Program-made: the position numbers and the translations under genes
From: Phoronis australis
Taxonomy: Eukaryota; Animalia; Phoronida
Direction: 5' to 3'
Assembly (NCBI GenBank): GCA_002633005.1
Contig: NMRA01000508.1
Location: forward strand, 165,250 to 229,249
DNA: 64,000 bases
The notes under the pieces: generated by a model
Seen by the model: the letters and a program-made list of their open reading frames with translations, nothing else
What the model was told of the DNA's origin: nothing
The model's database searches: none
Shown here: piece by piece, positions 2,749-36,955 of the stretch
Position numbering within the stretch: position 1 is the stretch's first letter
Layout: each line of letters begins with the position of its first letter

Positions 2749-4625
2749 CTGGTCGCCTGGATATCGTACCTCAGGGCACATCAACTGGTTACCGATAAAT
2801 GCTTACCATTATCTTTACTATAAGAAAGAAAAACAAAGTGAACAATTGATACGCCTATCGAACGGTCCTTAAGCGACGAGATTACGACCACAAGTTTCCC
2901 TTGGGCGATGAGTAGTCTTGAATTGGAGCTTCACAAGAATTAGACATTATAAAAATGTTAAATCGTAAGTTAGTGTTCGTTTTAAATGTTAATCAGTTTT
3001 CCTAATACCCTATCAGCTGCATCAGCAAGAAAATCGGCGGAGCTATTAAAATCTAGGTGTTCGTCCAAATTTATGACTAAATATGCTTATATCATGATTG
3101 GTATTTAACAGATTCTGTCCCTAATTGAAGTTCAAAATTACCAACGTCGATTGATTTCCATCGGAAGTGCACGATTTTTGTTTTCGACCTATTTGGCACC
3201 ATGCACCACTTATAATACCAATTATTCAAAACATCTAATATCTCCTGTAAATCATTTTCATTTTCAGCCACAAACACTGCGTCGTCTGGATACAAAACAG
3301 TTCTCACGCCCTTGCCCCTGCAATTTGTCTCCCATACTAGTTCGTTGATCTATAATACAAATAAAGACTGGGAAAATGTGTTACCTTGTCTGACACCATT
3401 CTCACGATTGAACCAGTCTGTGTACAAAGTGTCGTTTAAACGAATAAAGCTTAGCGGGCTTTCATAAATCATTTTAATCGCAGATATATACGTCCTGAGA
3501 TACCATTTTTATCAACTTAAAAAACATGAATTTGTGACTACTCCAGTCAAAGGCTTTTTTCAAATCTATGAATGCCGTAAAAGTAGAAAGACTGGAAGCC
3601 TTTCGAGTCCTTATTAGAGTTGTTAAGACATGCAGTACACGTACAAATCATCAAGATAGGAGCGCTGTCTCCGGAAACCGTTTTGCTCATCTACAATAAC
3701 ATTTTATTTGCGTCACAAAAAATTGCCATCCTGTTGGTCAATACAGAGCTGAATTTTTTAAGTATTCGACGACATTCCTCTGTGGTATAACCGTGACCAA
3801 ATTTCAATGTCTTGCCTGGAAGGTTATCTATATCAACTGCTTTACCAATTTGGCACCCATAACTACTTTCCTGACCCCTTCAAGTTTTATATCACTATTT
3901 CAGACAGAAAGGTTGCAGTTACATGTACCTTCACTGCTACACGATGGATTTTCCAAAATTATTTTGTTTGTCCATAACATTTTGATAAAAATCACAGCAA
4001 AACTTTTATCGCTTGAATAATTTTGGAATAGCGTTTGAAAGTTATTTTTCCATTTTTGAGTATTTATGTTCAAAAAAACTCCATTGTCCGAATTTAGGAC
4101 TTTTAACTGTGACGTCACTTCGCTTATTGGGTGTATACCATTAATCGGACTGCCCAGACATTGTTTCAATGTGTTAGCCGGTGGTATAGTGTATCACCGG
4201 AAACATTTGAGTGCCACCTGTAGGTCTACAATTCAGCGAGTGTCCGGACACTCATTTGTATTACATCTGTGAAAGGCTCCGTGCCATAGAGTAAGAATTT
4301 TGAGAGAATGAAGGCTAATATGACCTCTTATTCCTCTTGAAATACACGTGCAATCGTGCGTTTTGCGTCAAATTTTTCTGCCTCGACCGAAAGCAGCAAA
4401 CAGACACTGACTTTCAAGAAAATCAGTGTCTGTGCACCGATTTCTCGCATTACCTTTCGAAATTTGAAAACTGTACAATCCTGCCAAACCGAGAACACAA
4501 TACAATCCATGTTTGAAACGTGTTTAAAACGAGGCTATACTTTTAAATATAAAAAGCCAATCGTTCACCGTTGGGATTGTACATGTGCAGTAAATGATGT
4601 ATATTCTGTTTCCACGGCAGGTACA

Positions 4626-4900
4626 ATGGGCAAGTGTGTTGTCCTACTGTTTGTGCTCGTCGTCATAGCGACCTTGGTGCACGAGGGGGACTCCTGGAGA
4701 AGGTTTCGGATTCGGCTTCCACGCATACGAATTCGTCTCCCACGTATACGGTTGCGTTTACCGCGTCTGCGTTTACCGCGCGTGCGCATTCGAGTGCGAC
4801 GATTGCTGCCCCGTATCAGGTTGCCACGATTTCGCTTGCCAAGAATCAGGGTTCCAAAACCACCCAAGTGTCCTGAACTCGACACCTCCAATTTCCTTAA
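4626..4900 (+). CDS. Cationic-precursor coding exon 1: signal peptide + Arg-rich repeat
   Basis: ATG at 4626 follows a pyrimidine-rich ...ttccacggcag element. Hydrophobic signal peptide, then (R-I/L-R-L-P)n. Donor GTGAGT at 4901, phase 2. Confidence 0.9.
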
Positions 4901-7900
4901 GTGAGTATTGCAATGGGCAGTCAATATGTGTTTATGTGATGAATGTAGTTATGTGCCGAAAAAGTGGAAATTCCTGTCAACACGTCACTCCTATTTTTCG
5001 TGTGCTAATCTGTATCAAAGAAGCTACATTGTATCTAAGAAACAACTTCATGTAGACGACTTGCCATTATGAAGTTGGTCTTAAATTGTTCCATAATCAG
5101 AGCGACAAATTGGCTTGTCACGACGTGTCATTTTATGCCAGAGCATGCGCTCAAAGGACAACGAACAGCCAGTTCTTTGGAAACCCAGAAATCACGTGTC
5201 CCCTAATCTAAGAAAGGAACAAGTTAAGAAAAAAGTTCAAAGCAGTGTGCAGCTTAAGTTGAAAGTTGACTTGTTTGACGAAACGCAAGGTTACTAAACC
5301 CTGTTTTGATGATTTCAACAAACCATCGTTCTATCACTTGCTAATACATCATTGGCGTCAATCTTGAAAGGTAAAAACAGGAAGGGATCTCCTAAAAACT
5401 TAATTCTCCCTACGTCACAGATTGAATAGTATGGTTCTTGATGGGTGGTTCTTCCCCACAGTCGCTTTGTAATTCGCTAAAATCTTAAGTCACGCTTGCC
5501 CGTGCATCAGACTTCGAAAGGGGTTTTCAAATTTTAGTCCAAAATTTTATGGGTGGTCACTGGTTATAGAGCATTATTTTGTTGCAAGGAATTGTACGGG
5601 AAAGTCTTTTTTAATATCTGTTAATAGGCGAAAACCGGGTTTGGTAACCCTTAAAGGGATTCCGTCAAAGTTCATACTGATCTGTGGATTAGAAGTTGTA
5701 AATTTAATTCTTTGCTTAGCGAAATTTCACTTATATAGGCTAAGACTGCAAAAGGTTAAGCCCAATTTTCAGTCATTGTTACGTGAGGTATTTGATTACC
5801 ACAACCTGGAAAAATTTATTTACAATGATAAATTGGATCCTGAGAGATTCCAGGCAAGGGGGTATTTTTTGCCTAGCAACTAGTTTTATAGGGTTCGATA
5901 ATGTTTGTAATTTGTTTGAGGTACTTGACTAGATTTCATATTGCTGTACAACTATATACTGGTTGGGAGAATTAATAAATGTTTTATTCAAAAAAATCAT
6001 ACTGACATGTTTACGTTATGATAAAACCAGATTTTGCTTCCTTATATAGTGGCATCGGCAAATGTTGTTTTTTTGCTTGATACCAGTTTTTACTATAAGA
6101 ATAATAACTAGAGGAAATCTTTCCTACCCAAAGTCACATGATCTCATTTAAAATACACGACAATATCTCACGTAATCTCGCGAAGTCTTGCTTTTAAGCG
6201 AGGTCCTCGCGCCAACGGGTTTTGCTTCCTTTAAAGTGGCATCGGCAAATGTTTTTGTGCTTGATACCAGTTTTTGAGGAAGTCTTTCCTATCTAACGGT
6301 AATCCCCAAAGTACGTTTTACGGTCCTGAAACCGACTGAGTCCCTTTCATAGCCAACCCAGAACTATGAGATCTTATTTAAGGCAGAACTAATTCCACGC
6401 TGGGATTGGCTCATTACAGGGAGGCGCTTTGTTCTGTTGACAACGGCGTCAAGAATAGCGGTTGCATGGAATTATGTCACGCATTTGGCGACATGTTCGA
6501 AGTTAAAGATTACAACGTGAAGTGCCCAGTTGCTTGCCAGAACCTTTGCAATCTTCCTAATTTGGGTAAACGGGTGAGTGTAGTAAAACTGCAACATCGA
6601 AGTGAAAAAGTTGCCTTACGTTATACCACCAACATGTGCAGTTATCAAATAGGTTTCAACAGATATCTTCTTAACACTGGTTTGAAGTGATTTTTGTGTT
6701 TGGATAGAGCTGAGAAGAAGTCTTTTTGCTGAAGATTAAGAATCCACTCCATTTTATGCACAGAAACCAATATGGCTGGTTACACCAAGGTACGTTGACC
6801 TGTCAATAGGTGGAGACAGTGATCTACATGTTCATGTATAAATGGGAACATTTGCGCATTTTGATTTGAATGAAACGGGAGTGTACTAATATAACTTCGG
6901 TCCCATTAAGATACTTTGGTACTTCAGTAGCCGATCATGAGCCGGTGTGCTTGGAACACATAGAATGAATTTCTTTTATTGGGTTTTGTCAATAAATTAT
7001 CAAAAATAAATAATATCCATCTAATGCTAACTCGAAGCTATTCACTTGGTGTCTCAAGCGAAGGAAGAGACCTTTCCATAGAAAAGCCTGCATTCAGGTA
7101 GATCGCGTGGCCCTTTATCACATCGTTCTGAGGGGCAGTGCACAAAGAGATCTACGCACATCGAATGCATATTAGGTCAGCTCATAGCTAACATACAGTG
7201 TATGCCGCTTAATAAACCATGGTGATTTTGCCTCGCGAGGGGGTGAGTCACTTGTTAGATTTTTTCACGTCACTGTCGCAAACCTTCACAACATGTCGGG
7301 GAGAAACCCAAGTTCTTCAGGCCAATTACAATCGCTTGCCAAAGAAAGTTAGTAATTGCCTTGACGACAACAAACCGTCACGCCCGCTCATTGAAACCGT
7401 GTGTACTGCATATACGTTGCTTTATTTACTGCGGTAGGATAATCAACAATTTACCTCGTAGTGGGAGGAAACAATGGCGTGAGCTAAATTGCACTTGAGG
7501 CACACAGCTCAGGTCGGAGCTCTCCGTCTGCGCTCGCCTTTAGCAGATCAAAAAGAGCAACCTGTATTTACCGCAAAGTGAATATCGAGTAGCGTTGGGA
7601 GGACGTGAAGGGCTAGGTCTTCCATAGTCATGTGACGTGGTTTGAGTAAATTTTCAAATTACATGCGATGTGATTGGTCTGTTTCAAATTACAAGCGATG
7701 TGATTGGCCTGTTTCCAAATTACATGCGATGTGATTGGCTTGTTTTCAAATTGAAGCTCTGGTTAAGTTTGTCTGAGTCGAGTCTGAGTTTGGAGAATAA
7801 ATCATCTTAGGCCCAGGATCCAAAATTATTAATCTCATTCGCAATCGTTGGTATAAAAATAATGCTCGTGATTGGTTACGTTTTCAAGGGTGAAATTCCC

Positions 7901-10900
7901 AGCGGGAATGACGACTTCAATTACTACGACGAGAACAAGGACAACAAGATCAGTAGCGCAGAACTGTCAAATGTTCTCAGAGTCAACGAGAGAGAAGTGG
8001 ACGAGAGGACTCTAGGAAGATTCTTCGTGGAGAATGATTTGAATCGTACGTGAACAGCTTTTGAAATTATTTATTTCTGCAAGCAGACATTGGGGACTAA
8101 TACGTGTAGGTAAAGTAAGCTCGTGGTTGTAGCACATGTCTCTTCAAGATAACTTACCGACAAGCCTGTACATTTAGTCACGTATTTACAAAAATATAGA
8201 AATTAACCCCGTAAAAGTATACATTTCCTGAAAGCAGAAACCGTATAGACTTTTATTTTTAGTTTTAATCAATATATCGTTAACTGAATTGCCTGCTACT
8301 GTTAGTAAAATTTAGCAAAAAAAGTGCATTCTCCGCCAATGTACATGTACGGTATCAATAACGTTAATCAAATTTCATTTAACATAATAATAGCTCAAGA
8401 CGAAGTCTCAGCTAAAAATATCATTTCGTTTCAGTTTTAAGCCGTTTTTTGTTTTACAAAAAATCATAGCAATTTTTGTTTTGATAGCTTCTTGCTCAGA
8501 AGTGAAATATTTAAAAAAAAACAAGTTCCATAAATGTTTTGGACTGAAAGCAGTGTATAAAGATTAGTGAATGAAGGTTTTACGTGAATTCAGTAAGCCT
8601 TTTCAGATTTATGATCTTCTAAATTTAGCTAAATTTGGACATTTCTTCTAGGGTCCCACACGATTTTAGTTGCTTTCAATTCTTTGGCAAATCCTTATCG
8701 GTCACTTTCAGACCTTTTGATTTTCGACCCTTTTAGTAATTTTTGAGTATTGACTTCCCTTAGTATGTGGGTCGACTCGCGCAAACGTTTACACACATAC
8801 AGGCATACAAAGTGATTCCCCTGAGCGCGTCGAAAGTTATTAGCTGGCTATGAACCCCACGGTCACTCCGAATCCTTCTTCAGTTCCCGGGAACGTCCAT
8901 ATACAATGTGGGTGCAAAAGTTTTCGGAACACACCAATTAATCCAGACACAAAAGTTTGTAAAAATGTCAAGTGTGAGAACGTGGTGTGACTGGGGACTT
9001 TCATTGCTATTTGTGGGTCCACATTTTCAATAATAATTTGGGTTTTATCATTGTTGTTTAAGACTAAATAATAAAATCTTTGAGACGCGATTCTGCGCGT
9101 AGTGATAACGACGATGCCGGCAGTGTACGTATCTCAAAGATTCATTATTTTTGAAGCACATATGATCATTTCTACAAAAATAAAACTTGCCCCATTGTGT
9201 GATGGTACAGGGCACGAACTGAGATAGTTCAGTCAGCGCCAATTCAGAGAAAAATATACCTCGATAGGTTGAAAATAACACAATTTAAAGTTATTTGATG
9301 AAAAGTGAAAAGAAATATACTTTTCTTTGAATGGCTTGATTTAAGGAGACGGGTTCTTGGACAGAGAGGAATTCGTGAAAGTTAACGAAAGAGAAAATGG
9401 TAAGTATGAATTAATCGATGTTCAAGTAAAAATGTTGTGTCTGTGAAAATATTACTAATTTAATTTCAGTTGTAAATGTATTTGAGCTGAAGTTTTTAAG
9501 AAGCGTGTAGTTTGTCCGTTAGTGATGAAATACATCTTTAGATTGCCATCAATATGTATGCCTGTACACTGAATTTGTTGTAGAGTACGTATTTTTATAT
9601 TATTTACGGGACATTATAAAATTGGTTGATATTTCTACAGAAGCTCTGGAAATGCTCCTGATTGCTTCAGCACTTTGGCTGAGCGTGATTTATTGCAAAT
9701 GTACAGTAGAATGTCACAGATGGTGCTTTAGCTCAGGCGTTTGGTGCAATGGGCCCAACCACGCAGCATGCGCAAGTCTGATGCATCACAAATTAAAGAC
9801 ATCAGGCCACCTGCACTTTTTTGTTTTTATTGTGATTTTGTAACTGTGACAGTTTCGTCGCTTTGACATTATGACGGCCTCGTACGTTGGTATATAAAAC
9901 TGTACACCTCTGGTACACTCTTCTTTCCCAGTGGTACGAGAGGTTTCCATATAGGTGGCGCTGTGACAGCGGATAACTGTAAGTGGGAATCTGGGCCCGG
10001 TTGTATTCCTTTCCTATGCTGCACGCGCTCCCGGGTATTTTGACGTTGCTTTAGGCCTAAAGCAGTAAAAATAAAATTTGATTTATACCACTTACCATTA
10101 CTGGAAGTCGCATTTTTTTAAGTTAGGTCTTAACGCCACCTCTTGGTCACATTACGTGACCTCGTGAAACTGATGTGGCAAGGACAGTTTGTCTGTTTCT
10201 TCAAATTTTAGAAATCATTTATCATTTCAATAAGGAACAGAATGAAACCAGTTTCGCGGCGGAAAGCGATAAATCAAAATATGTAATTTGGATGACGAAA
10301 AGCGTTTTTTTTTTTTCGTATGCATTCTAAATTTATTGCCCTTCTATTATTTGCAATCGAATGCGCCGTATACCAACTATTATCCAGCTCGGCAGAAGAT
10401 AACTGCGTTGCAGGGTGATATTTTTCAGGTCAAGAGGTCATTGGTGAAACAATCAACTTCCATAGAGCATTGAGATAAGTTCTAGTGAATAACCTTACCA
10501 GGAAGCATGTGCTTTTAATCAAATTATCAACAAAATTTCAAAATTGTATTCCGAAAAGATACATATTTTCTGAAAGTAAAAAGATCGTAAAATATAATTT
10601 CCTACTTAACAAATAATGTCTTCACAAGGCCATGTTTTCTTTTACTCATTTTTAGCAAAAAACAATGTTTCAGAAAAGATGAAGCATTTCACATAAATTT
10701 TCATGAACAAATCTAGAAAACAGTTCTCCAAATATTTTATTTTATGCAGCAGTTTTTAAAATGAAAATCGATATTTTCATAAAAATCATTTGAAAAAATA
10801 TGTGTACAGCCCCAGAAATCACTTTCGCATTATATCCAGGTTCTCATTCATTCCGTTGCATACACTCACTAGTACGGCCGAGCTGGGAAAAGTAGGAGAC

Positions 10901-13900
10901 ACGTTTGTGCAATGCTCGATTGTCTTCCAGTAAAGCCAGGATTCGAACATGGATCTCCTAAACGGAAGTCCGGAGCTCAAACCACTGAGCCACACCGTCT
11001 CCCCCATAAAATCATGAAACCCTTGATTTTGAAGATGTCTTATTAAAAAACAAGCCCTTTAAAACGAGTCTGGGAAACAAAGTCCATAGCATAGTATCTT
11101 ACAGTTTCATTTAAGTTGATTATCTGTTTTTGAGATAAGATGTTGGTAAATTTTCTCGTAGTCACAAAGCTAGACATCAACTTTTAACTTGGAGGTAGAT
11201 GTTTAGGCTAATATCGAAATAAATTAAGTACAGCATGAAAGCTGAACCCTTAATGGTCAGGTAAATTAGTTTGGATTTAAAATTTCTCACTTACAAATCG
11301 AAGTGATGCGATATTCATAATCATAAAAGAATCACGAGATTGTTAGTTTCAAAATATTTTTTTCAAAAGACAACGTTTTTACAAACATTACACACTTTTT
11401 GAGCAAAAAAATGAGGATAGCATACATGTACTAGGTGTATAATTACTAGACTATCTCTTTCAAATCATTATCAAGACAGAGTGTACTCGATGTAGTAAAA
11501 ATGTAATAGTGATTGAAATCCTTTCTTAATACGGAAAAACACATAAACAGAAAAACAAATATCATAAAAAATATCTACAAAAATACTACTTGTAAAATAT
11601 ACGGCAGGGCATCCAGAGTCTCTCTGAAACATTAACACCGAAATTGTCGCATAAAATACATATACGACACACGTTTCATTGTTGGCATGACGTCATCAGC
11701 ACTGTGCCCTTGTAAATCCATTACACAAGCTGAGAATGAGGACGCTTCTTTTTTAGACGATGACACGGAGGAATTCCTTCGGGAAATGGAAGAAGACGAA
11801 AATGACCAGACAGGTACATTAAGTCAAAAGATGCCATCAACACTGGATTAATATAACGTATACTTAAAAGTATTTAATTTTGGGAGCCTTCGTCACAACT
11901 CCACTAGTACCTCTTTTGTCACGGTTTTTCAGCAATTCCCCTCCGCGTTGCGTAAATTTCCATATCGCATGTCGCCCCCTCGTATCACGTTGCTACTGTT
12001 TTTAGCCAGTGGCCCTGCTCCCGCCCGCCCATCAACAAAACAGCTGTGGTGAAATGGGAGGATTTGGGCCCCTAATTTCTGACTCGGCGTTTATTTAGTT
12101 CGGTGCTGCAGCAGGCCAACATATCGTATTGTACGATCATAGAAAAATTCGTCTTAGCAAATCGTCTGTTCTGAAGTCGCACGGTGATTTGTTTCCTTCT
12201 TAGACGGCATCAGAAAACATGGAGGACCTGCCTTTTTTAGAGGGAGACCGTCTACTAGATACTTAGCGTTTAATAAGTTCAGCGTCCCTTGACCCCGGCT
12301 TCTATTAGAACGAAGCGTCGAAACCCGGGTATTGTTAGAAGTTTTACATGTACATGTACATGTACGGTACACACGGTAAGTGAGCATACTGTACGTCGTC
12401 TGCTCATTAACCGGAAGCCGAGGTTGGTATTGAAAGACTGGTGCATTCAGTGGAATTTCATAAGAAAATGTTGGAGTTGCGAATCTGTTGACTTATTATC
12501 TATGATTTTAGGCACCGATACGAATGAAGAGCATCCAGCCTAGTTGAAACTCTAACAAACTGATATTTTACTTCAGATGACAATGAAGTCCAGGATGAAG
12601 AGAAACGTCAATATTTGGATGGCCTGGAACAAAGAATGAAGGACAACGGTAAGGACGGGTGCAAGTCAATGACGGTCATACGTCAAACGCACTCACCAGG
12701 TTCGAATATGATAGACGATAAAAATGAATGCGTGAACCACAGGCCCTTGAATCTATTTGTTACCAGCACTCAATTTAATAAAACAAATACTTTCAAAACA
12801 CCAGAAATGTCTCTGCAACAAAAAGAATAAAAAGAGGATTTTCAAACTGCATACCAAAAAATAGCGATCGTAAAAATTATGCGCATGTGGGCTATATCTT
12901 TAGCCCGTATATCTTAAGTTTGTGAGGCCATCAAAGATTTTTGAAATATGTATCCTCTAATTTCACCGTAAGCGAAGGAAAACGTCCGTGTTTCACCACA
13001 CCCGATAAATAAATGAAGTCCATTGGTTCACACTGCTGACAGTAGAAAGATTCTATGCAGAGTTTTCCTCACGGACAATCTGCAGTAATATGAACAAAAT
13101 GCTTGTGTCCACCTACGCACATGGTAATTACCTGTACGTCAAACGGGATTATTGCTATTCAGATCACTGGCATGGTCGTGACATTATTTTGAGAGTTTTC
13201 ATCAAGCATATTAATTTGTTGATCTTTGCCATTTTGAAGAGCTGACTGAAGATGATGAGGCGGCCATCGCCCAACTCGACGAGGCAACAGGTAAGTATCA
13301 GATTTGGACAGTTCCGTACAAGCAGGATTTTCGAACTAACGCAATCACGGGTTTCGCTTATAATATATGGCGATATCTGCATGGGCGATGCACCAAAGTG
13401 GGGCTGGGGGCTATACCATCCCATTTTTTCAGTGCTGCGCTGCCCGTGATCTGGCATAGTGGTGCGTGATATTGAGTTTTCGTGAGGTTCTCTCGTCTAC
13501 AGAACGCACACCTGATTTGGAACTGAGAGAGGAAAACATTTTTAACTCAAAACTGGCCAAACAAAGTCTCTGAGTTTTATTTACCGGAGCACACAGTTTT
13601 AGTTGTCCATTTGATATTGATGCAGATATCACAAGTAAAGAAATAAGGAATTCCATAGCACTGTGTGTAACACACAAAAGTAGTTTGATATCAAATAGCG
13701 AAGCACATTTAAAAACTCTGATACAAGAACGGAGAACCTTGCCAATACAAAACGGCAATGTGTCATTCATGCTTAGAAGTGCCGAGATTCCACTTCTAGC
13801 CAAAATATAACTTTTGATTTAGATAATTTGTTGTTTTAATATAACTCGCTTTGATTTTGTTCCTTCATGGGAGTACCAACGATTTGAATCCATTAAACCG

Positions 13901-14229
13901 CCACTGCTCAATAGGATGGTTTGACCAGGCAGGTCTTTTTAAATGCGGAGAATGTTCCCAGCAAGTCCGATATATCACTTCTTGTTATGGAGTGTGGAAG
14001 TTAAGACCAGTTACACGACAACCCAAAGTTAGTTTTTGCGACTGAAGATGGGTTTACGTTATCTATACCTGTATAAGAAATCGATGACGTAAAATGTTAA
14101 GCTAGGTTGTAATGCTCGTCAAATGGTTTAAAACATTCGAAACCACTTCTGTAGATTGTTTGTGTTTGAAAATCAAGACGATTAATTACGATTTTTGGCA
14201 TGTTTCATATTTCAGCTAATGAAGAGTAG
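4626..14229 (+). CDS. Secreted Arg/Pro-rich cationic peptide precursor with Cys-rich domain, GKR site, two EF-hands and acidic C-terminal propiece (candidate antimicrobial peptide precursor), 286 aa, 8 coding exons
   Basis: join(4626-4900,6420-6573,7889-8045,9346-9399,11730-11813,12577-12648,13240-13290,14216-14229). All introns are GT..AG, phases 2,0,1,1,1,1,1 match, and the total is 861 nt ending in TAG. Translation: MGKCVVLLFVLVVIATLVHEGDS-WRRFRIRLPRIRIRLPRIRLRLPRLRLPRVRIRVRRLLPRIRLPRFRLPRIRVPKPPK-CPELDTSNFLKEALCSVDNGVKNSGCMELCHAFGDMFEVKDYNVKCPVACQNLCNLPNL-GKR-GEIPSGNDDFNYYDENKDNKISSAELSNVLRVNEREVDERTLGRFFVENDLNRDGFLDREEFVKVNERENAENEDASFLDDDTEEFLREMEEDENDQTDDNEVQDEEKRQYLDGLEQRMKDNELTEDDEAAIAQLDEATANEE*. 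Function is inferred. Confidence 0.85.
6420..6573 (+). CDS. Cationic-precursor exon 2: six-Cys domain ending GKR
   Basis: Acceptor cattacAG 6418-6419 (phase 2 matches); EALCSV...CPVACQNLCNLPNLGKR; donor GTGAGT at 6574, phase 0. Confidence 0.85.
7652..7752. repeat. ~28-bp tandem repeat, about 3.5 units
   Basis: Unit tttcaaattacatgcgatgtgattggYYtg repeated in intron 2 of the cationic-precursor gene. Confidence 0.85.
7889..8045 (+). CDS. Cationic-precursor exon 3: EF-hand 1 and start of EF-hand 2
   Basis: Acceptor ttttcaAG; loop DENKDNKISSAE; donor GTACGT at 8046, phase 1. Confidence 0.85.
9346..9399 (+). CDS. Cationic-precursor exon 4: completes EF-hand 2
   Basis: Splicing 8045 to 9346 restores the canonical loop DLNRDGFLDREE; donor GTAAGT at 9400. 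Confidence 0.85.
10833..11005 (-). mobile_element. tRNA-derived SINE-like element
   Basis: Minus strand begins GGGAGACGGTGTGGCTCAGTGG (A-box) ... GTTCGAATCC (B-box), then a non-tRNA body (gacaatcgagcattgcacaaa ... gtatgcaacggaatgaatg). The body recurs on the + strand at ~36956-37095. Confidence 0.65.
11730..11813 (+). CDS. Cationic-precursor exon 5: acidic tail
   Basis: AENEDASFLDDDTEEFLREMEEDENDQT; phase 1-1; donor GTACAT at 11814. An alternative in-frame acceptor exists at 11757. Confidence 0.75.
12577..12648 (+). CDS. Cationic-precursor exon 6: acidic tail with internal KR
   Basis: Acceptor ttttacttcAG; DDNEVQDEEKRQYLDGLEQRMKDN; donor GTAAGG at 12649; phase 1-1. Confidence 0.7.
13240..13290 (+). 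CDS. Cationic-precursor exon 7: acidic tail
   Basis: ELTEDDEAAIAQLDEAT; strong donor AG|GTAAGT at 13291; phase 1-1. Confidence 0.7.
14216..14229 (+). CDS. Cationic-precursor terminal coding exon (ANEE*)
   Basis: Acceptor tttcatatttcAG, TAG at 14227-14229, followed by a cluster of AATAAA signals about 220-245 nt downstream. Confidence 0.65.
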
Positions 14230-14446
14230 ACCTGATGACGCCGACTTGCTTTTGGAACATCGTACATCGTTGAGCGCTTCCTTCGCCTGTTTTCCACATG
14301 CTTGTGTTGCGTATATGAACAGCCTGTCCATTTGCATCACATACATGTAAATCTTGCAATATTTTATTCAGATCATTAAAAACAGCTAAAACAGATTATT
14401 TAGTCCAAAGCTTGATTCTTCAAATGATTATCTTCCCAAATCATTG

Positions 14447-14472
14447 AATAAATAATTGAATAAATAAATAAA
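14447..14472 (+). promoter_or_regulatory. Polyadenylation signal cluster of the cationic-precursor gene
   Basis: Several overlapping AATAAA hexamers (tgaataaataattgaataaataaataaaac) downstream of the predicted stop. Confidence 0.5.
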
Positions 14473-15574
14473 ACAAAACAATTAATCAACCATCAATAGC
14501 AATCAATACCTGCGATAATTCAATAACAAAATGGAGCATTACGGTTATTCTCAGCGTCTGACGTTATCCGCCCTAATTAATCATTAAGATACAAGGTTAA
14601 GGGGAGAAACAAATGCTTAGCACGTGCCGTATAACGCAAACAAACTTTACCTCCTACAGAACACGTACCAAAGAACCCGAGCTACAGCTGCAAACAGGAC
14701 ACTTACCACGGGCAAATAAGGCAGTGTGTAAAGTGGTCGCCAGAGCACACTGTCCTGTGCAAGATTTTGCCCTTTAATGTTTATTATTTAGCTCATATGG
14801 AGTTAAATATTGGATGCCAATATCAATTGTTTTGTATTAGGAGTATTAAATTTACGCGTTGACGAACCCTGCGACCAGAAAGAATCGGCGTGTCATTACG
14901 TGACCCATGTCGCAACACATGTAAAACCTTCGCTCATATTGTCCGTGGTAAGACTGTACTGAACGTGGTTCGAATTCAGGTTAAAGGTGGTAAGAGTCTT
15001 AGTCGTTGCAAGAGATTGTCTCCTCGCCTGATATCACTCCAACGTAGTTGATGACAGTCCTTAAAAAGGCACTTGATCTACAGCAATTAAATGATACAAC
15101 ACAGCAAAAATACTTGTACAATCAGTGAAGTCATTTTTGTGAAATGTTTGTTTTATGGACCGAAGCCTTAGACTAAATCTTGGAAGTCATTAAAACAGAG
15201 GAGTGACGTACATGTAAAGCATCCCTACGAATATCATTCAAAAAAGCATTCAATAGTCGTGACAAGCGTTTGAATAGATCCAATAGTTTTCAATACAACG
15301 TGACTTTCGAAATGTTGCCGACAAACACGATTTGATGTGAACTTCTCAATTAATGCAACGTTGTCTCGTCTTTAGCTAAAATCAGTCTGGAATTGCTTAG
15401 TCTGTTTCTCGAAATCAGGCCGAGGCTAAAACTCAGAAAATTGACTAAAACTCGATATCTAAAACTGAAATCTGTAGCCTGTTGGGGTGCAGACGAAAAC
15501 CCGCTTTTGGTTAAAATAAAGTAACTACACAATAAAATTTTCCTTCACTGTGTTGTGACTCCTTAACTGAGCAA

Positions 15575-18500: not shown

Positions 18501-21500
18501 TAGACAGCGATTATGGCAATAAAAATCCTATGGTCAACCTACAGTACACAACAACCTGGGCGCCGCACGGTACTTACCACATGTGTAATAGCGCCTCTAG
18601 ACTTCTTCCTTGACTGGACGTGTCTCGTTTTTATGTCAGTTGCCATGTTCGTAAGAGAAAGCTCCTGCCTAGAGCTTGCCTCCTTGTGAAACCATGCTCC
18701 ACTGTAGCTATCAAATGTGTACTGAAAAAGTATGCGTACTTATGTCTTACATATTCAAATTGTCGAGATTGCCCACCGACATTCTTACGTCTGTATTTTT
18801 TCAAATGTGGAAATACGAGCAATTTCTTAATTTGTAAATGGCCACCATTTTGAAAATCAAAATGCGATTGTCATCCAGGAACATTTTATGTTATATTGAC
18901 GTGTACTAAGTCATCCAAAGCTCGACGTAATGTACTTTATCACCATGCATACATGTGTACGTGTGTTAAGGCCAACAGCGTTTATTGTGACGCGGTGAGA
19001 GGATCCTAGCACAGCGGAAAAAGGCTCGAGCATACCAAGGCGGTAAACTAATTGAAAATGGATTGAATAGAGTTCACAAGGTAAAGAGATGTGCTGTAGT
19101 GAAAATGTTAATGATTAGGTTTACGGACCAGTGCAATGCTTGAGAAAAAGTTTCGGAAATGGTGCCGGAGTATTGCGAAGCGAATAACTAGCTACACATT
19201 ATGAAAGGAGCTTTATTCAACCGTAGTCTGTTTAGACTATCTCATCACCTGTGGTAAGAGAAGCCAGCCGTGTGTAGCCACTATATTAACGGCTTCGATG
19301 ATGTAGTCTATGACGTCATCATCAACAAAATAGGGCAAGTTGAGTCGGGTGAAACCTGGCCTGCAAATTAAATGAAAGTTCATAATATTATCAAATTTTG
19401 TCCTCTTGCGTATACTGATGCAACGAATTTTAATCAAAGTCAAATTTACCTAGTTGTAACAAGAGAAACGCTGAGCGTTGAAATGCGCCAACGAATGCAT
19501 CGCAAATGGTGTGCTTTTAGGGTTGTTTATTTGTGTCATAAAAACTTTCAATACATCCAAAACCAGGAACATGTCATTGCTTGTTTAAAAGAAAGCTATA
19601 CACTAAATTTCATAGAAATCCGTCGCGGAACCTCATAGAAACAAAGGAAAACAGAATAAAATGAAATTGCCACTACGGGGCACAGTGTTCATTGGATCTG
19701 CCTGAAAGTCGTCATTGTCCGTTGTTAGCTTCATATAAATACACTTACTAAATTCAATAAAGATCCTGGAGTGGGTTTAGGAGACACAGCTAACAAATCA
19801 AAACAACCACTAGGAGGCGCAAAAGTAGTCAAAGTCGTCATCGTCAACCGTCCTCTTCACACCGAGAACATACACGCCACTTTTCAAAACCCTCCTTAGA
19901 ATGATTTGGTTGATAGAGGGGTAGACGCCAAAAACAGACAGCAAAAATGTTCCCTAGGTGGCGCAAAATACCTTGATTCCATCCCAAAACGGGAGGATAG
20001 CCTTATCCCACCAATAGATTCCGTATTCAAAATTTAATGAAAATCGCCGGGTAAAGGACCTTTGACGATTCTGAGTTAAACCTAAAACTAAAATTGGCAG
20101 AAGGAGGCACACCGGTAGTCAGATCTATCCGAAAACAGTCGTCGTCCGTTGTCAACATCATATCAACACACTTGTAAAATTTAGCAAAGATCCTGCAAAC
20201 GGTTTAGGAGATACAGCCATGAGCGCAAAAAAACGAAACTGCGACTAGGAGGCGCCACAGTAGTCGAAGTCGTCAGAGAATCATCGTCAGCCATCCACTT
20301 CATAGCAAAAACATACATGTCAATTTTCATAATTATCCTGAAAGCGGTTTGGCAGATAGAGGAGTGGACGCCAAAAAACAGANACGGAGATGACGGCATA
20401 ATGCCTCCACATATAAATATGTGGGTGCATAAAAATTATTCGAGCGTCATATGCGCTTTTACGCATGCATTTTGACACACATCCATGAAAACAGTTATGA
20501 TCGAAACAAAATTTAGATGCAATTCTCAAATAAACATGAATGCAGCTGAGGTACACGTACGTTACGCTGGGAACACGTTGTGGCCGTATTTCAATAAGGT
20601 TCCAATTCTCCAAACATCATCTTAACGACTACTCCACACCCACGTGCCACATCAACTAATGTTTGCTTTGTAAGTAAACGTTTCCGTGGCTTTCGAATTT
20701 TACTTACTTCATCAGCGACATTGTCATCGGAGGCTCAATTGTCGGTGTACTGAAATATGGCAAAATGCGTCATGTAACAGAATAGGACTGGACGTCATTT
20801 GTAGTTGTTGTACAACTGCAAATGCTCATTTGCAAAGGTAGCATCTGAGAATTGTACGAACATATCCATTTCAATGAAAAATGTAGTACTGTTTGCAACA
20901 AATGTGTAAAAACACAGTTTGTATTATAAACCCCTTTCGACAATTTTCAATATTCTTCTCGAGTATTTTTCACGACTTTACCACAATTTTTGTTTACTTA
21001 TATACAGACCTTATAGTGGCGGACACGCCGTCCATAGCTCCGGTCTTCACTTGTCTCTTATTTTGCTAGGTTTGTTTTCTTATGTTTGTATATTATTAGA
21101 ATTACCTCGACAAACTATCTCGGTGTCGTTCCTCTAGCGGTGTGAGAAAGAAGAAAAATTTCGATGCCAACGATTCGGAAATTCCGAGTAGATCCTAAGG
21201 AGATAATGATCACAGTTATAAGCAGCTACATGGTAGCTAGGGCTTAAAACAATTACTTCTTAATCCGACAGACTGCTGTTTGAAGTTACCATTGTTTTTT
21301 TTTTGTTTTTAAAGCAAACTTCAAAGGTGACATACTCCATTTAAGCACAGTGTGCCAAGTCCGTGTCTGGTCATTCCAAATAAGGAAGCATGCTTTTCCT
21401 TGTTAGAGGAAAACCAACCAAGTGACGAGCAGCTGACAGCTCTTCTGACATTTTTAAAATTCAAGAAAGTTGCGTTTACATCAACATAAATTCAAAATGT

Positions 21501-24500
21501 TTGCGGACACACCGTAAAAATATCTGGTGAACAGGTTGAATTCTGTTTCAGTGGCAGAGAACAACTTTGAATGATGCAATTTAGCCTGTTTTCGCGTTAC
21601 AGGCCTCTTTAACATCGCAAATACTTGTAAGTAGGATGCAAAATAAGCATATACCTCGGCGTAAGGTCCAGCGCATGCGCATCCACCACGTGACTGTATG
21701 CCGAAGAGGTCGTTGAGGACAGCCGCCACAAAGTTGTAGTGAAGCAACGTGTTTGAAACTGGATGACGAATGAGAAGCGAGAATATCGGTATTCTCTTCG
21801 CCGTGTGACTTCCCAGCACGACCAGGTTCTTGTTCCTTTTCCAAACCTTGAACGCTCTGTTGCATAACTCGTGTTCTCGTTGTTTGAGAATCAAGCTGTC
21901 GACGTTCTGTCACAAAAATGTTCTACAGTTAAACACAGCAACGGTTGCAGTGGGTTTCAAATAAGCAAACTGAACGTGTCTCATTCACTTGAGTAGGAAA
22001 ATATTGAGCAGGACGAATTAATAAATAAAGCTCAGTAGCTCACTCGCAACTGTAACGGCCTGAAGCACTGAAGGCGGGATGACAGGGTCAGGGACGTGTC
22101 GCAATCCGGGTCCCGCCCGCCCAGATCCTACCAAACAAACGGTGCCAACATGAAAACTGTTAGAGCTGTCGTGGTCATATTTTATGTCTTGATATGCTAG
22201 ATTCATAGCGCACGGATTCCATCCACCTTTGAACCATTTTGGCATCCAATGATTTGTGCATGTGTAAGACTTCGATCGTGGGAGTTTTATCTCTTCTCAT
22301 CGAAATATTTGTTCAATTCGGAACCAAACAACTGTCTATATCACATGATGTTGAGTAGAAGTAGCCTTTCTCACAAAAACCTTCACTTACCCATTTACTA
22401 CATTACAGCCTAGTACATGTACACTAGTCACCAGCCGACTAGAGAGACCTCTTTCGTGAAAATGTCATCACTTACCATCTTAAGCTGGAAGACCAACCCT
22501 GCACGAATGGCTTCCACAATAGCCGGTGTTCCACCTTCTTCTCTTGCTTCAATGTCTTCAACGTAACGATGGGCTTCACGGGTAACCTATGAGAACAGAA
22601 AGTTGGCAACACGTACAGTAATAAACTCAATTGTTTATTGAGAGGGATGTTTTGTTCCTTGTAAACAGCAGGTAACTAACAATGAAAGACGTCAAGCCAC
22701 CAAAAGATTTACCGAAAACTAATAAAACAGACTTTAGAAGACGAACAGCATAAGGAAACCAAATGGAGTGTGTTTCAATATGGATGGCTAACAGGTCTTC
22801 ATGAAGTTACGTCCCTTCAGCAGGTATGGTAACCGTGATCGATAGGCAAAATCACAGACTTTTCTTTCAATGATATTTTAGAATTTCAAAAAGTAAGCCA
22901 TTGAATCTCAGTTCAGTTTTAAAAGTAACAATCATTTCCATATTCCACACTTCATCGATACGTGTACATGAGGTGAAAGAGCAACTCCGGTGTACGTACG
23001 TAAACGACTGTTCCACCACCGCAACAGTGTGGCACCTTGTTCTGGAACAACTTCCGTTTGGCAATAAGTATTCCTGGCGTGCCAGGACCTCCAACGAACT
23101 TGTGTGGGGAAAGAAACACAGCGTCTTTACTCCTGCAACACAAGACCTCAGTTCCGTGGATAAGATCAAGAATCTGCGGTCGCCTGTACATAAACTGCAC
23201 GTTTCGGTGTTGCAACAGTCAAGAAAAAACAAAATAGGAAAGAAATATTGCTTACTCAACCTGGGCTGCGTTTTTTCGACGCAATAACCTCGCTTAAATC
23301 CAAGACTTTGCGAAATAACGCCGTATATTCCAAGCTGAGCACGAGAAGAATTTCTCGCAGTTTTCTTGGGTCCACGGAACGCAGCCCTGGTAGCAAATGT
23401 TGAGATAAACGTACTGCGCTAATTCCCACATATATTTTTTATTTTTTATATAATATGTCATAAAGACTCCATTTTGTCAAATGTGTTGAATACAACGAAA
23501 TCCCATATAAATAAAAAATAATGCACTTTTTTCTACCTCACCAACAATGTGGAAATGTACTTTGTCCGGCTCTTCATTTTTAATTGTCAATGACGTCATT
23601 GTCACTTGTTTCCTTTGACATAAGGCATGCACTCTGAACACAAATTACTGTATCACTTCCTGTCGTCGCAAACATCAAGCTAAATGCTTATACAAATTTA
23701 CATTTCCCCGTTATTTATATTTATTTTCCCAGATATCATGTAATCTTAAAATTTATAGATCTTATATGCTAGTCGATTCTTGGTTAATTACGTCAAAATT
23801 GTGTGAGTTTTTTCTTAAAATAAGCTCAGATGGGAGAGGCAGCCCTCCTTGAATTGAATATGCGGCGGACGTTACTACAGAGCTAAAGTTGGGTAACTGG
23901 CCTCATACATATAGATAATGCACATGTTTACCAAATTTCACGCTTTTATAGAATTTGAATGATTTGACTTTTAGTCATGCTTTGTTGCTACCGTCATCTC
24001 AAAGCACACTTACGTCGAAATTGACGGATTGACATCAATGTCTAAATAAGGTCCTGCTGTAGCATAATCCCAAAACACGTGGCCGCCATACTGGTGGACA
24101 ACACGCGTAATCTCGTTGGTATTCGTGATGATACCCGTGATGTTGCTCGCAGCGCTGAACGATGCGATGATGTTGAAGTCGTCATTGCAATGTTGCTGCG
24201 AATAGACGAGAGGCAAACTTCAGAAAAACGACTTTAGCAGGTACAAACCAATTACAGAAGGACGGAAAGTTTGCATACAATCTTGAAAGATCGGCAAAAG
24301 TGATTTATTGCACTGATAGAAAAATCGTGATCGGCGGAACATTTGCCGAACATAACTGCAACTTGTCCCATGTAGCGAGTATCAATTTTTTCAGGTCAGT
24401 TCAGATTGAAATTAGATAAAGCTTTCTGAAAACGAATGCAATATTTGTTTAAACGGGTATTTTAAATACAATCGACGTCAGATTTAAGTTACCCTTATGG

Positions 24501-27500
24501 TCTTCTTAATTTACGAGAAGACATTGCCGTACATTGGTTCTCAAGAACAAAGAAAACCTCCAAGCTTAACGATAAATCTACCAATTACTTATGGATTTGT
24601 CTAAGAGAAATTTCACCTTTAACTGGAGCACCAGGTCGGACGTATTTATTTGTCCACCGTGTTTAGTCTCTGATATCCGCACAACTTTTGCTCCGACTTC
24701 CTTCCACGGTAAAATATTCGAATGGTGCTCGTAGGGGCCAACGAACACCACCTGCATGTGAATAATGAGGAAGAGATTTTATCATTTTGGTTAGAATAGT
24801 CTTGAACACGATGACAAATAAATGACCACGGCAACAATGGTGATGGCGAATGAACGCGCTTCCTCACCAGACCAGCACCCGTGTTGTGTAAAACATATAC
24901 GAAAAATTGAAATTGACGGTTTACTCACCGTCTTTTTGTTGCTTTCTCGAAGATTGAGTACTCCAATTAGCTTGTGCACAGCCCCTGTGACGCCATTTCC
25001 GGTAAATATAACAACGTCATCTTCCGACGCGTTCACGCATTTCTTGATTATTTGCCTAAGGGAAACAGAAGGCACATATTCTACACCATGACTTTTAATT
25101 TTCAACATTTGATGTTTTGAAGAAAACTGGCCGATTGCTCTTGATATGTTTAGGAAAGCTTAGCAGCTTGAAAATGTAAAACGACGGTGGCAGAAATTCC
25201 TCAAATTGCAACTTTTGACGTTTTGTAATGATGCCAATGCATATTGACATATATCTCCCTTTCCAAGAACTTCAACGGTACCAGTCACTGGAACAGTCAT
25301 TTCGTTACTCCGCAATCGTACCTAGCTTCCTCCCGTAGATATTGGGTGGTTCGCCCTGTAACGTTGGCAGTTGTGTGTGTGTTGGCGTATAACTCGTACA
25401 CCTGGTCAATGATGAATTGCTCCATGTAGCGCAGAGGCCGACCAGAGGCAGTGTAGTCACAGTAGACGACTAAAACGGAAGTGAGAAGTGACGCTTATTG
25501 AAATATATCGGTTCGACACAAATCCACGTCAGATTCTCCACTTCAAGGATTACATGGGTCAGTTGGTACTATATTTAAGTCCCGTTCACACAAAGAATCA
25601 ATCCAGCACAACTTGCACTAATGCACAAACATACATGTATTCACAAATAATTATATGTAGCTAATGGCGGATGTTGTCGCTCTGCACATGAAAATAAACT
25701 TCGCTGATGAGCGCGAAACGAATGACATGTATGTGTACTGCGCAAGCTCGCAGCAGATAATTTCTTACGCCTTGCGCCAGGTTTGCGGCCACACGGCGAT
25801 TAGGAGTGACGCAAAACTTACCCTAAAACAACTGTTATCTTTCCTACATAGTGTGGACAAAGTTGTCACAAGTTAAAATAACGTCCAGTGTACAGCTAGC
25901 CCCAAAACTTAGAAACAACTCATTCACACGGAGTAACTTGCTTTAGGGTAAATCTGTACGTGGACGGCACATTTATTTGATGATTCAGGCCCCCAATTTC
26001 AAAGAGGTACTGTCAGGGCTAACGCTAGCGTTTTTCCTTTAATACCAGTAGTTGTCTCCCCTGTAGACATTTTACATCGGCAAGTTTAAAGGAGAATGCC
26101 ACCCGATTTAATTAGTCTTTTTTGCCGTCTTTATCGGTCTATATCCAAATCGCCTCGCATACGATCGACCTTACCTTGCCAAGAGGTGTCGCGTTAACCT
26201 GTGAGGAAGGTGAGAAACGACGCTAGCGACGTCTGTGGTTCATATGCAGAGTGAATGCCGCTATGTTTCGGTGCATCGTTCCCGCTTGTCCAAACTAAGC
26301 AGTTGCGAGGAAAGTGGGTATAACGTTTTTTTTTACTTCCTCGAGAGTCTGAAATGCTTAGGAAGTGGCTCATGGTAGTGAAGAATGAAGTGTACGCTGT
26401 AAATAGCAAGTATGAGGCCGTAAAACATCTCCGTGTCTGTGGCCTGCAGACGCCGACAGTGCCTGACGAATGCCGGCTTACCAAACAACTCCATACGTTC
26501 CGTTGTCTGAGCTTGTTCACGGCGCCTCTCTAGTATTTCTTCATCACTGTATTCCTGTTCGAATTGATATCTTGTAAAACTTACGATCCACCTGCGAAGT
26601 CGGGACTGATGAGCTCTAGCTCGTCCTAAGTCGGGATTGCCAGTTGCCATGTTGGTGTTTATCATTGAGCGTTCTGTTTCAAAATGAATTATTCTCACCC
26701 TAACCAATACTTATATAAAACTGAAACAAAGTATAGTCTCATTAGATGCAATTTGTAATGCCTTTGGAGTGTTCGTGAGAGCAAATGATTTGAGAAGCCA
26801 GCAATGAATAAATAAATCACTGCGTTACCGGCTTTAGGTGCAATAAAACTAATTGACGGTACACCTAGGCCGTTTGAGCTTATGCTAATTTAGTTTTTTG
26901 TTGGCAGAAACTGTTGTGAAACAACTCAATTTCCATCCCACGGCCAGGTGTTAGGGGAATCTTTATTTACATTTACATTACTCAAATAATGATTGTCAAT
27001 GTACAACTTCTGCCCTGACGGTGCTGTGGCCAAACCGGAACCCGACTCTCGCGGCCCCCGACGGTGAGTAAGTAGATTTGCGGTTTCGTGGCTAATTCAC
27101 CAACATAATCAGGTGCACACTACTTTGGCTCACTAGTATAGTATTTTCTTAACTGGAAGTTTAGTTTCCACTGAACTTTGGCTGATTTATGTTCGTGATG
27201 TCTGATCAGTTTACGAGCCACTGGCGGGGATAACGAGTCAATCCGACCGGCCGCAACGGGCTTGATCGTGCTCCGAGCCACTGGCCAGGCTAACCAGGGT
27301 TTTGTGTTGAGAACTCAAAAAATCACAAGTCTAAACAACACAGGTCTAGATTTTCCTGTCTGTATCTCATGGAAAATACTTCGAAATTATCTATTCCGAC
27401 CCCAAACTCCTGCTACGGACCTCCGTCATTGGTCTGCCGAACTTTGTAGGCTACGGTGTGTCCAGATACCAATAAATCCGTAATAGCGAAATAAAACAAC

Positions 27501-32204: not shown

Positions 32205-32509
32205 NNNNNNNNNNNNNNNNNNNNNNNNNNNNNNNNNNNNNNNNNNNNNNNNNNNNNNNNNNNNNNNNNNNNNNNNNNNNNNNNNNNNNNNNNNNNNNNN
32301 NNNNNNNNNNNNNNNNNNNNNNNNNNNNNNNNNNNNNNNNNNNNNNNNNNNNNNNNNNNNNNNNNNNNNNNNNNNNNNNNNNNNNNNNNNNNNNNNNNNN
32401 NNNNNNNNNNNNNNNNNNNNNNNNNNNNNNNNNNNNNNNNNNNNNNNNNNNNNNNNNNNNNNNNNNNNNNNNNNNNNNNNNNNNNNNNNNNNNNNNNNNN
32501 NNNNNNNNN
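32205..32509. other. Assembly gap (305 N)
   Basis: Run of n. Single-n joins also occur at 20383, 29033, 52142 and 58692. Confidence 0.99.
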
Positions 32510-36633: not shown

Positions 36634-36802
36634 CTACTAATTGTATATGTAGGTGCAGAAATCCAGCCATTTCACTGTAACAAAATGAACGGCCTACCGA
36701 GCAGGTCAAGGGAGGCAAAGCTTTAACGGTCCCTCCCTGGTTTGCAAATCGTTTTCCGGAAACAAGGAGGCAACCGTCACGCCTGTCGCACACTTGAGAC
36801 CC

Positions 36803-36955
36803 GCCTCCCGTACAGTAACGCGAGGACTTCGCTAAAAAGCAAGACTTCGAGAGATTACCTGAGATATTGCCCAGTATTTTGAATGAGACCAAGTGACTTT
36901 GACTAGATTTTAGCTAGGTCCTAGCGTTGGTCTTAGCGTTACTGAACGCACACCC
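36803..36955 (-). mobile_element. Inverted copy of the 1560-1710 MITE
   Basis: Reverse complement matches (gcaagacttcgagagattacctgagatattgc ... gctaggtcctagcg ... ttactgaacgcacacc). Confidence 0.7.

Follow-up and report, generated by a model that had tools for sequence, protein, structure and literature searches.

The 64,000-nucleotide stretch of the Phoronis australis genome analyzed here (contig NMRA01000508.1, positions 165,250 to 229,249; hereafter, the window) is repeat-rich, with about 40% GC, and carries, on the plus strand at 4626..14229, a gene for a putative secreted precursor that consists of eight coding exons separated by 7 GT..AG introns. The precursor, 277 amino acids (aa) long after one correction of the exon structure, combines a predicted signal peptide, an arginine-rich repeat, a cysteine domain closed by a Gly-Lys-Arg (GKR) site and an acidic part with two EF-hands. 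One full-length homologue was found, the protein P0010. The features of the gene are the following:

4626..4900, plus strand: coding part of exon 1, signal, Arg block and linker (spliced translation and RNA joints)
4626..4694, plus strand: predicted signal peptide, aa 1-23 (hydropathy)
4695..4868, plus strand: Arg/hydrophobic/Pro block, aa 24-81 (translation, periodicity, codon counts)
4869..4900, plus strand: linker with a seventh cysteine, C82 (translation; C82 kept in P0010)
6420..6573, plus strand: exon 2, six-Cys domain followed by GKR (spliced translation and RNA joints)
6420..6564, plus strand: six-Cys domain, C-x10-C-x3-C-x15-C-x3-C-x3-C, predicted helix-loop-helix (single-sequence model)
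6565..6573, plus strand: G-K-R, predicted convertase and amidation signal (closes exon 2 exactly, at a phase-0 intron)
7889..8045, plus strand: exon 3, which opens the propiece and holds EF-hand loop 1 (7928-7963) plus the first part of loop 2 (translation, EF-hand scan)
9346..9399, plus strand: exon 4, remainder of EF-hand loop 2, which ends at 9371, followed by the exit helix (translation, RNA joints)
11757..11813, plus strand: exon 5, start corrected, acidic segment containing a short amphipathic helix that is conserved (RNA joint, P0010 alignment)
12577..12648, plus strand: exon 6, acidic tail with a conserved predicted helix (RNA joints, P0010 alignment and model)
13240..13290, plus strand: exon 7, acidic tail (translation, RNA joints)
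14216..14480, end approximate, plus strand: exon 8, final 4 codons, stop (14227-14229) and 3' untranslated region (translation, RNA joints)

Gene structure and expression

An eight-exon gene had been proposed at this locus in an earlier, sequence-only reading of the window. The model was reproduced to the residue, and its seven predicted junctions were compared, over positions 4000-14800, with RNA from the same organism, namely, three runs of raw reads from one study (X2, X3 and X4) and the contigs of a fourth run. Every intron was recovered as a GT..AG joint (among the 15 of 23 joints that were listed), with exon 1 joined through to the EF-hand exons; among the listed rows, a joint is covered by 99-261 reads in X2, 306-645 in X3 and 7-12 in X4. 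The first mates at the joints lie almost all on the minus strand, which, in most stranded libraries, indicates a plus-strand transcript, and the recovery of seven GT..AG introns with a consistent strand excludes chance. The part of the model that had to be changed is the start of exon 5. Intron 4 ends at 11756, with the joint from 9399 to 11757 supported by 261, 645 and 10 reads in X2, X3 and X4, respectively, a depth close to that of the flanking junctions, and exon 5 comprises 57 nucleotides (nt), not 84. In view of this depth, the acceptor at 11730 that had been assumed originally was rejected; it is not among the 15 joints listed and, if used at all, gives a minor form.

A second joint is seen both for intron 3 (8047-9348) and for intron 5 (11819-12577), with a depth similar to that of the first in X2 and X3. 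The 11819-12577 joint is in frame and adds 2 aa (11813 versus 11819; in the other pair, 8045 versus 8047), and the doubled forms are probably alleles. Expression of the gene is high and sample-dependent, with means of 46, 16 and 0.8 junction reads per million records in X3, X2 and X4, respectively. A splice acceptor lies 5 nt upstream of the ATG (4626), and one contig extends 11 letters upstream of 4618; these letters have no above-chance match in the 64-kb window and may come from a non-coding exon that lies upstream, beyond the window, or from a trans-spliced leader. The 3' untranslated region contains AATAAA at 14447, 14459 and 14467.

Conservation and module structure of the precursor

A HMMER search with exon 2 against 1.84 billion representatives yielded three matches, of which P0010, a 276-aa singleton encoded by a 990-base Logan contig, is the sole full-length homologue; the remaining two, P0009 and P0011, owe their match to the repeat and were set aside. 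P0010 aligns with the precursor end to end, with 49% identity over 283 columns, each of the 4 regions compared scores better than 500 of 500 shuffles, and the corrected exon 5 is accommodated with no extra gap. All the modules recognized in the sequence-only reading are present in P0010 and in the same order, namely, signal, Arg-hydrophobic-Pro repeat, Cys domain, GKR, both EF-hand loops and acidic tail. The Arg block is identical at 40 of 58 positions and the segment at aa 237-262 at 16 of 26, and all seven cysteines are retained, with identical spacing of the six. The computed charges on the two sides of GKR are +21 and -33 in the phoronid precursor and +20 and -37 in P0010, that is, the split into opposite charges about this site is conserved. 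A word search with exon 2 gave no match, and one with residues 68-276 of P0010 retrieved only P0010 itself among 1724 candidates; in the ESM Atlas, there were generic EF-hand clusters below 0.9 and no usable match for residues 1-132. Metagenome matches (4 of 103 stretches) were dropped because they cover the EF-hand part only, at 33-35%.

The leader at aa 1-23, with a mean hydropathy of 3.49 in its h-region, is the sole hydrophobic stretch of the precursor (no other hydrophobic 19-mer exceeds 0.3), which agrees with the 23-aa signal peptide predicted originally. The cationic block of 58 aa likewise stands as described, with 23 Arg, 2 Lys and no Asp or Glu (net charge +25), and includes 7 RIRLP-type pentamer units and 10 Pro. 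Its hydrophobic moment is maximal at 153 degrees (0.91, versus 0.17 at 100 degrees), a periodicity that fits an extended two-faced strand rather than a helix. All 6 Arg codons are used, and only 22 of 85 same-residue codon pairs are identical; this codon diversity implies that the repeat is kept as protein and did not arise by recent DNA slippage. The PRP core motif occurs 0 times in the precursor and 0 times in P0010.

A search with exon 1 retrieved 8 proteins among 355 candidates, and 5 of these (all except P0004, P0006 and P0007) were examined as sequences. Four of the five (P0002, P0003, P0005 and P0008) are animal-type secreted proteins with a similar repeat; the fifth, P0001, has the repeat without the animal precursor layout. 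In P0002 of Paralvinella palmiformis (LSH36_20g00010), signal and Arg repeat are followed by the start of a peptidoglycan recognition protein (PGRP) domain: the C-terminal 48 aa match such proteins in 7 of the 13 chains listed (best E 0.0017), and the gene model is probably truncated. The Macrostomum protein P0005 contains a 56-aa pro-region (20 Asp/Glu, 1 Lys/Arg) ahead of the repeat; P0008 is a secreted-type protein from oyster; and P0003 continues from the repeat into four Cys and GKR and resembles P0010 only in the leader and the repeat. A Trp directly follows the hydrophobic leader not only in the phoronid precursor but also in P0010, P0002 and P0003. That such a repeat occurs in secreted proteins from an annelid, a flatworm and an oyster that are otherwise unrelated suggests a reusable module that has been overlooked.

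The Cys-rich block noted previously was confirmed as 59 aa with 7 Cys, an odd number; it is not cationic (net charge -4, pI 4.5). The single-sequence model of exon 2 (pLDDT 68) predicts helices at positions 13-26 and 31-43, and the same two helices appear in the P0010 model. Fold searches with exon 2 produced no match in Foldseek and, otherwise, uninformative hits, the best at VIA Z 3.8, with two plant hairpin peptides level at Z 3.6 and 3.4; searches of PDB sequences with exon 2 and with the Arg block gave nothing meaningful. A predicted amidated helical hairpin with disulfides could belong to a defensive or predatory toxin, in which the hairpin would hit an animal target, the Arg block would deliver it to membranes and the EF-hand part would serve as a storage antidote. 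The C-terminal C-x3-C-x3-C spacing, which is loosely similar to that of ShK-type peptides, would fit such a toxin as well; the short query gave neither a six-Cys ShKT profile among the families listed in the Pfam scans nor its fold among the listed results of the fold searches. However, the hairpin has net charges of -4 and -1, is conserved and occurs only once in the window, and the Pfam and PDB scans matched no toxin family (weak evidence). We consider a toxin quite unlikely.

The acidic EF-hand part and the probable function of the precursor

The GKR signal that the sequence-only reading had pointed out is identical in P0010 (3 of 3 residues) and is the only dibasic site that the two proteins have in common. 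RVRR at 56-59 and KR at 242-243 were rejected as main cuts, being not conserved in P0010. In the myticalins of mussels, a G-K-R site is processed by convertase cleavage, carboxypeptidase trimming and PAM amidation (PMC5577615).

The correction of exon 5 leaves 134 aa after GKR, with 48 Asp/Glu versus 15 Lys/Arg (net charge -33); the originally proposed 143 aa, 51 acidic residues and charge of about -36 are thus revised, and the strongly acidic character stands. Two 12-residue EF-hand loops start at residues 157 and 193 and, as previously suggested, appear canonical, with Asp or Asn at positions 1, 3 and 5 and Glu at position 12 in 4 of 4 loops, those of P0010 included. In the Pfam scan, exon 3 alone reached E 7.8e-5, under the curated cut-off, whereas P0010 exceeded it (E 9.7e-12), with only EF-hand-type families above the cut-off. 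Residues 146-220 of P0010 have calmodulin residues 13-87 as their best solved-structure matches (E 7.8e-14), and the fold search with the P0010 model returned EF-hand proteins only. The intron at position 4 of EF-hand loop 2, in phase 1, presumably matches a calmodulin intron.

The acidic tail is predicted to be helical in the P0010 model and is conserved in sequence beyond its charge (z 16.6 versus shuffles), more than a disposable propiece seems to need. These features would suit an uncleaved secreted protein that binds Ca2+ or polyanions (an opsonin, matrix protein or granule component) and in which GKR remains unprocessed. The invariance of GKR, its location in a low-confidence linker and its exact placement at the end of exon 2 argue against such a protein, which we consider quite unlikely. 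Blocks of opposite charge and EF-hands on one secreted chain, together with the high expression in some samples, would also be compatible with a matrix protein (structural, adhesive, mucus or biomineral) that self-coacervates, its polycationic and polyanionic halves condensing in granules and setting with seawater Ca2+. Sandcastle glue indeed consists of polybasic and polyacidic proteins cured by Mg2+/Ca2+; however, it depends on conversion of Tyr to DOPA and on phosphoserine (PMC11277488), whereas Tyr accounts for 4 and Ser for 8 of the 277 aa of the precursor. The conserved Gly ahead of KR, suggestive of the amidation that marks bioactive peptides, and the fusion of a similar repeat to the PGRP start in P0002 also make a coacervate unlikely, if somewhat less so than a toxin.

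We regard as probable, with modest confidence, that the gene encodes the precursor of a host-defence peptide, with a myticalin-like layout that has gained a helical hairpin with Cys and a pair of EF-hands. The signal would be removed after S23, and cleavage by a convertase after R143, with trimming and amidation of L140, would separate a 117-residue peptide, amidated, Arg-rich and disulfide-capped, from an acidic propiece of 134 residues that carries the EF-hands. The extended amphipathic Arg strand, capped by the near-neutral Cys hairpin, would bind polyanions of the bacterial surface and agglutinate or permeabilise cells. The odd cysteine may dimerise the peptide; single interchain bonds are present in dicynthaurin, halocidin and centrocins (PMC10608444, PMC7024374). 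The propiece would neutralise the charge of the Arg block during storage until it is cut off, as anionic prodomains are reported to do for other cationic peptides (PMC10608444), and dilution, salt and competing microbial surfaces would set the peptide free. The putative amidated effector masked by an acidic partner that was originally envisaged is partly supported, in that GKR and the charge split are conserved, that the layout matches that of myticalin precursors and that a similar Arg repeat is joined to a PGRP start in an annelid.

The control of packaging or release by Ca2+ that had been added to that scheme fares worse, as no result obtained here supports it. The loops look canonical, and a switch requires low affinity, which is unreadable from sequence. 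The secretory lumen (endoplasmic reticulum and granules), body fluids and seawater are Ca2+-rich, so that canonical EF-hands are probably loaded along the whole secretory route, which makes Ca2+ gating the weakest step; we consider it doubtful. By calculation, two bound Ca2+ ions would bring the propiece no further than from -33 to -29. A complex prediction for the halves of P0010 together with Ca2+ scored 0.10 and speaks neither for nor against. A Ca2+ switch is possible if the affinity is low or pH-dependent, but the EF-hand pair is more likely to be Ca2+-loaded throughout and to serve as a folded scaffold or in the packing of granules. A bolder interpretation, equally doubtful in our view, is a new family of antimicrobial peptides (AMPs) with a calmodulin-derived Ca2+-sensing antidote, in which the exon for the strand is mobile and serves to target bacteria on other immune proteins, such as PGRP, as well; the EF-hand lobe and the acidic helices would grip the Arg-Ile/Leu-Pro strand at one combination of Ca2+ and pH and release it at another.

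Several considerations weigh against a defence peptide. Activity, cleavage and Ca2+ binding are predictions, only one homologue was found, and the RNA runs carry no tissue or treatment labels from which immune expression could be read. The predicted 14 kDa peptide is large for its kind, its Cys block has a net charge of -4, and it lacks the PRP core that characterises proline-rich peptides that bind ribosomes. The repeat is of low complexity and occurs also in P0001, such that its sharing may reflect convergence, and the PGRP match of P0002 is partial and weak. Sequence comparison revealed no second copy or paralogue in the 64-kb window; the precursor is single there, in contrast to myticalins and penaeidins, which are diversified multigene families (PMC11678341, PMC12294457).

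In the main text of open PMC and bioRxiv papers, we found neither an AMP precursor with an EF-hand propiece nor a use of the repeat motif, nor, as the sequence-only reading had surmised, a characterised AMP family with all these modules; the architecture is apparently undescribed. The analysis adds an RNA-confirmed, conserved precursor architecture that did not turn up in the protein and open-literature searches. Should it serve in defence, the precursor would provide a cationic scaffold that is new and exposed to salt, and the role of anionic propieces could be tested in a natural case, since its propiece has a folded metal-binding domain with mutable ligands.

Elsewhere in the window, a second likely secreted precursor lies at 54293-57230 (plus strand; hydrophobic leader at 54293, middle exon at about 55631-55765, predicted splicing). 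Its last exon terminates in SLKF-G-RR-stop, a predicted amidated neuropeptide similar to the C-terminal oyster SLRFamide (PMC8398477); the motif was not found named in the literature. A multi-exon gene of a class V aminotransferase occupies about 21500-25500 on the minus strand (PF00266 in 2 of 3 scanned exons, E 5.2e-5 and 0.0023). A short dispersed repeat is present in 4 copies (1553-1705, 2666-2754, 6123-6211 and 36798-36960) and is abundant in RNA on both strands; longer dispersed repeats form the pairs 26135-27788/33649-35591 and 30033-30687/41813-42467, with copies 76-87% identical. A 305-base N gap spans 32205-32509.

Comparison with known peptide systems

The EF-hand pair of P0010 resembles the N-lobe of calmodulin; unlike calmodulin, the precursor has no more than two EF-hands and places them after a predicted secretion signal. 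A convertase-cut peptide from a secreted EF-hand precursor is known from nucleobindin/nesfatin and snail pleurin (PMC8398477), which lack the Arg repeat and the Cys hairpin and have regulatory roles. By analogy, an EF-hand precursor with a released peptide has precedents in these two, with none found for defence peptides in the papers searched. The precursor might itself encode a hormone or neuropeptide of this type: nesfatin-1 is released from the N-terminal end of nucleobindin-2, an EF-hand protein according to a cited title, and the snail pleurin gene, by the title of a cited 1998 paper (PMID 9622259), encodes neuropeptides together with an EF-hand region (PMC8398477). No nucleobindin-like match was listed in the HMMER, word, Pfam and PDB searches, and a +25 repeat block is not known from nesfatin- or pleurin-type precursors. 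We consider a hormone precursor very unlikely, the least probable of the explanations discussed here.

A six-Cys helix-loop-helix like the one predicted here is found in ascidian turgencins, with 1-6/2-5/3-4 bonds and a C-terminal amide (PMC7024374), and is shared by plant alpha-hairpinin-like vicilin-buried peptides; such nested pairing would fit the predicted hairpin. Turgencins, however, are cationic peptides of about 36 aa with CXMAC and KKXGG motifs (PMC7024374), both of which are missing from the precursor, the Cys block of which is not cationic. Penaeidins, arasin 1 and hyastatin (the latter with 114 aa and 6 Cys, amidated) combine a Pro/Arg-rich N-terminal part with a Cys domain (PMC10608444, PMC11678341). 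The likeness drawn in the sequence-only reading holds for the succession of a Pro-rich part and six Cys, with a seventh in the linker, and is an analogy only. Penaeidins, limited to penaeid shrimp, are 5-7 kDa, with a signal, a proline-rich domain and a cysteine-rich domain (PMC10608444), compared with a predicted 14.0 kDa and a 134-aa extension here; they have one helix and 1-3/2-5/4-6 bonds, and the model of exon 2 shows two helices (pLDDT 68). The penaeidin, arasin and hyastatin precursors, as far as they are described in these sources, lack an anionic EF-hand extension, and no sequence match to these peptides was found.

The precursor is not a member of the myticalins, penaeidins or turgencins and is also unlike the PRP-type proline-rich peptides, given that class I proline-rich AMPs have a PRP core (PMC11678341), which it lacks. 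Myticalin peptides are linear, Cys-free and 23-42 aa long (PMC5577615, PMC12294457), compared with 117 aa and 7 Cys here; their extension is of low complexity and 35-75 aa long, with no EF-hands mentioned, compared with 134 aa and an EF-hand pair; and their genes have three exons, with signal, peptide and dibasic site in one (PMC5577615), compared with eight coding exons. Antimicrobial activity and expression in the gill are further marks of myticalins. The layout of the myticalins and modiocalins of Mytilus and Modiolus is nevertheless like that of the precursor, namely, a signal, an Arg/Pro-rich peptide, Gly with Lys-Arg and an anionic extension (PMC5577615, PMC12294457), and, in myticalins as here, an intron lies shortly upstream of the ATG.

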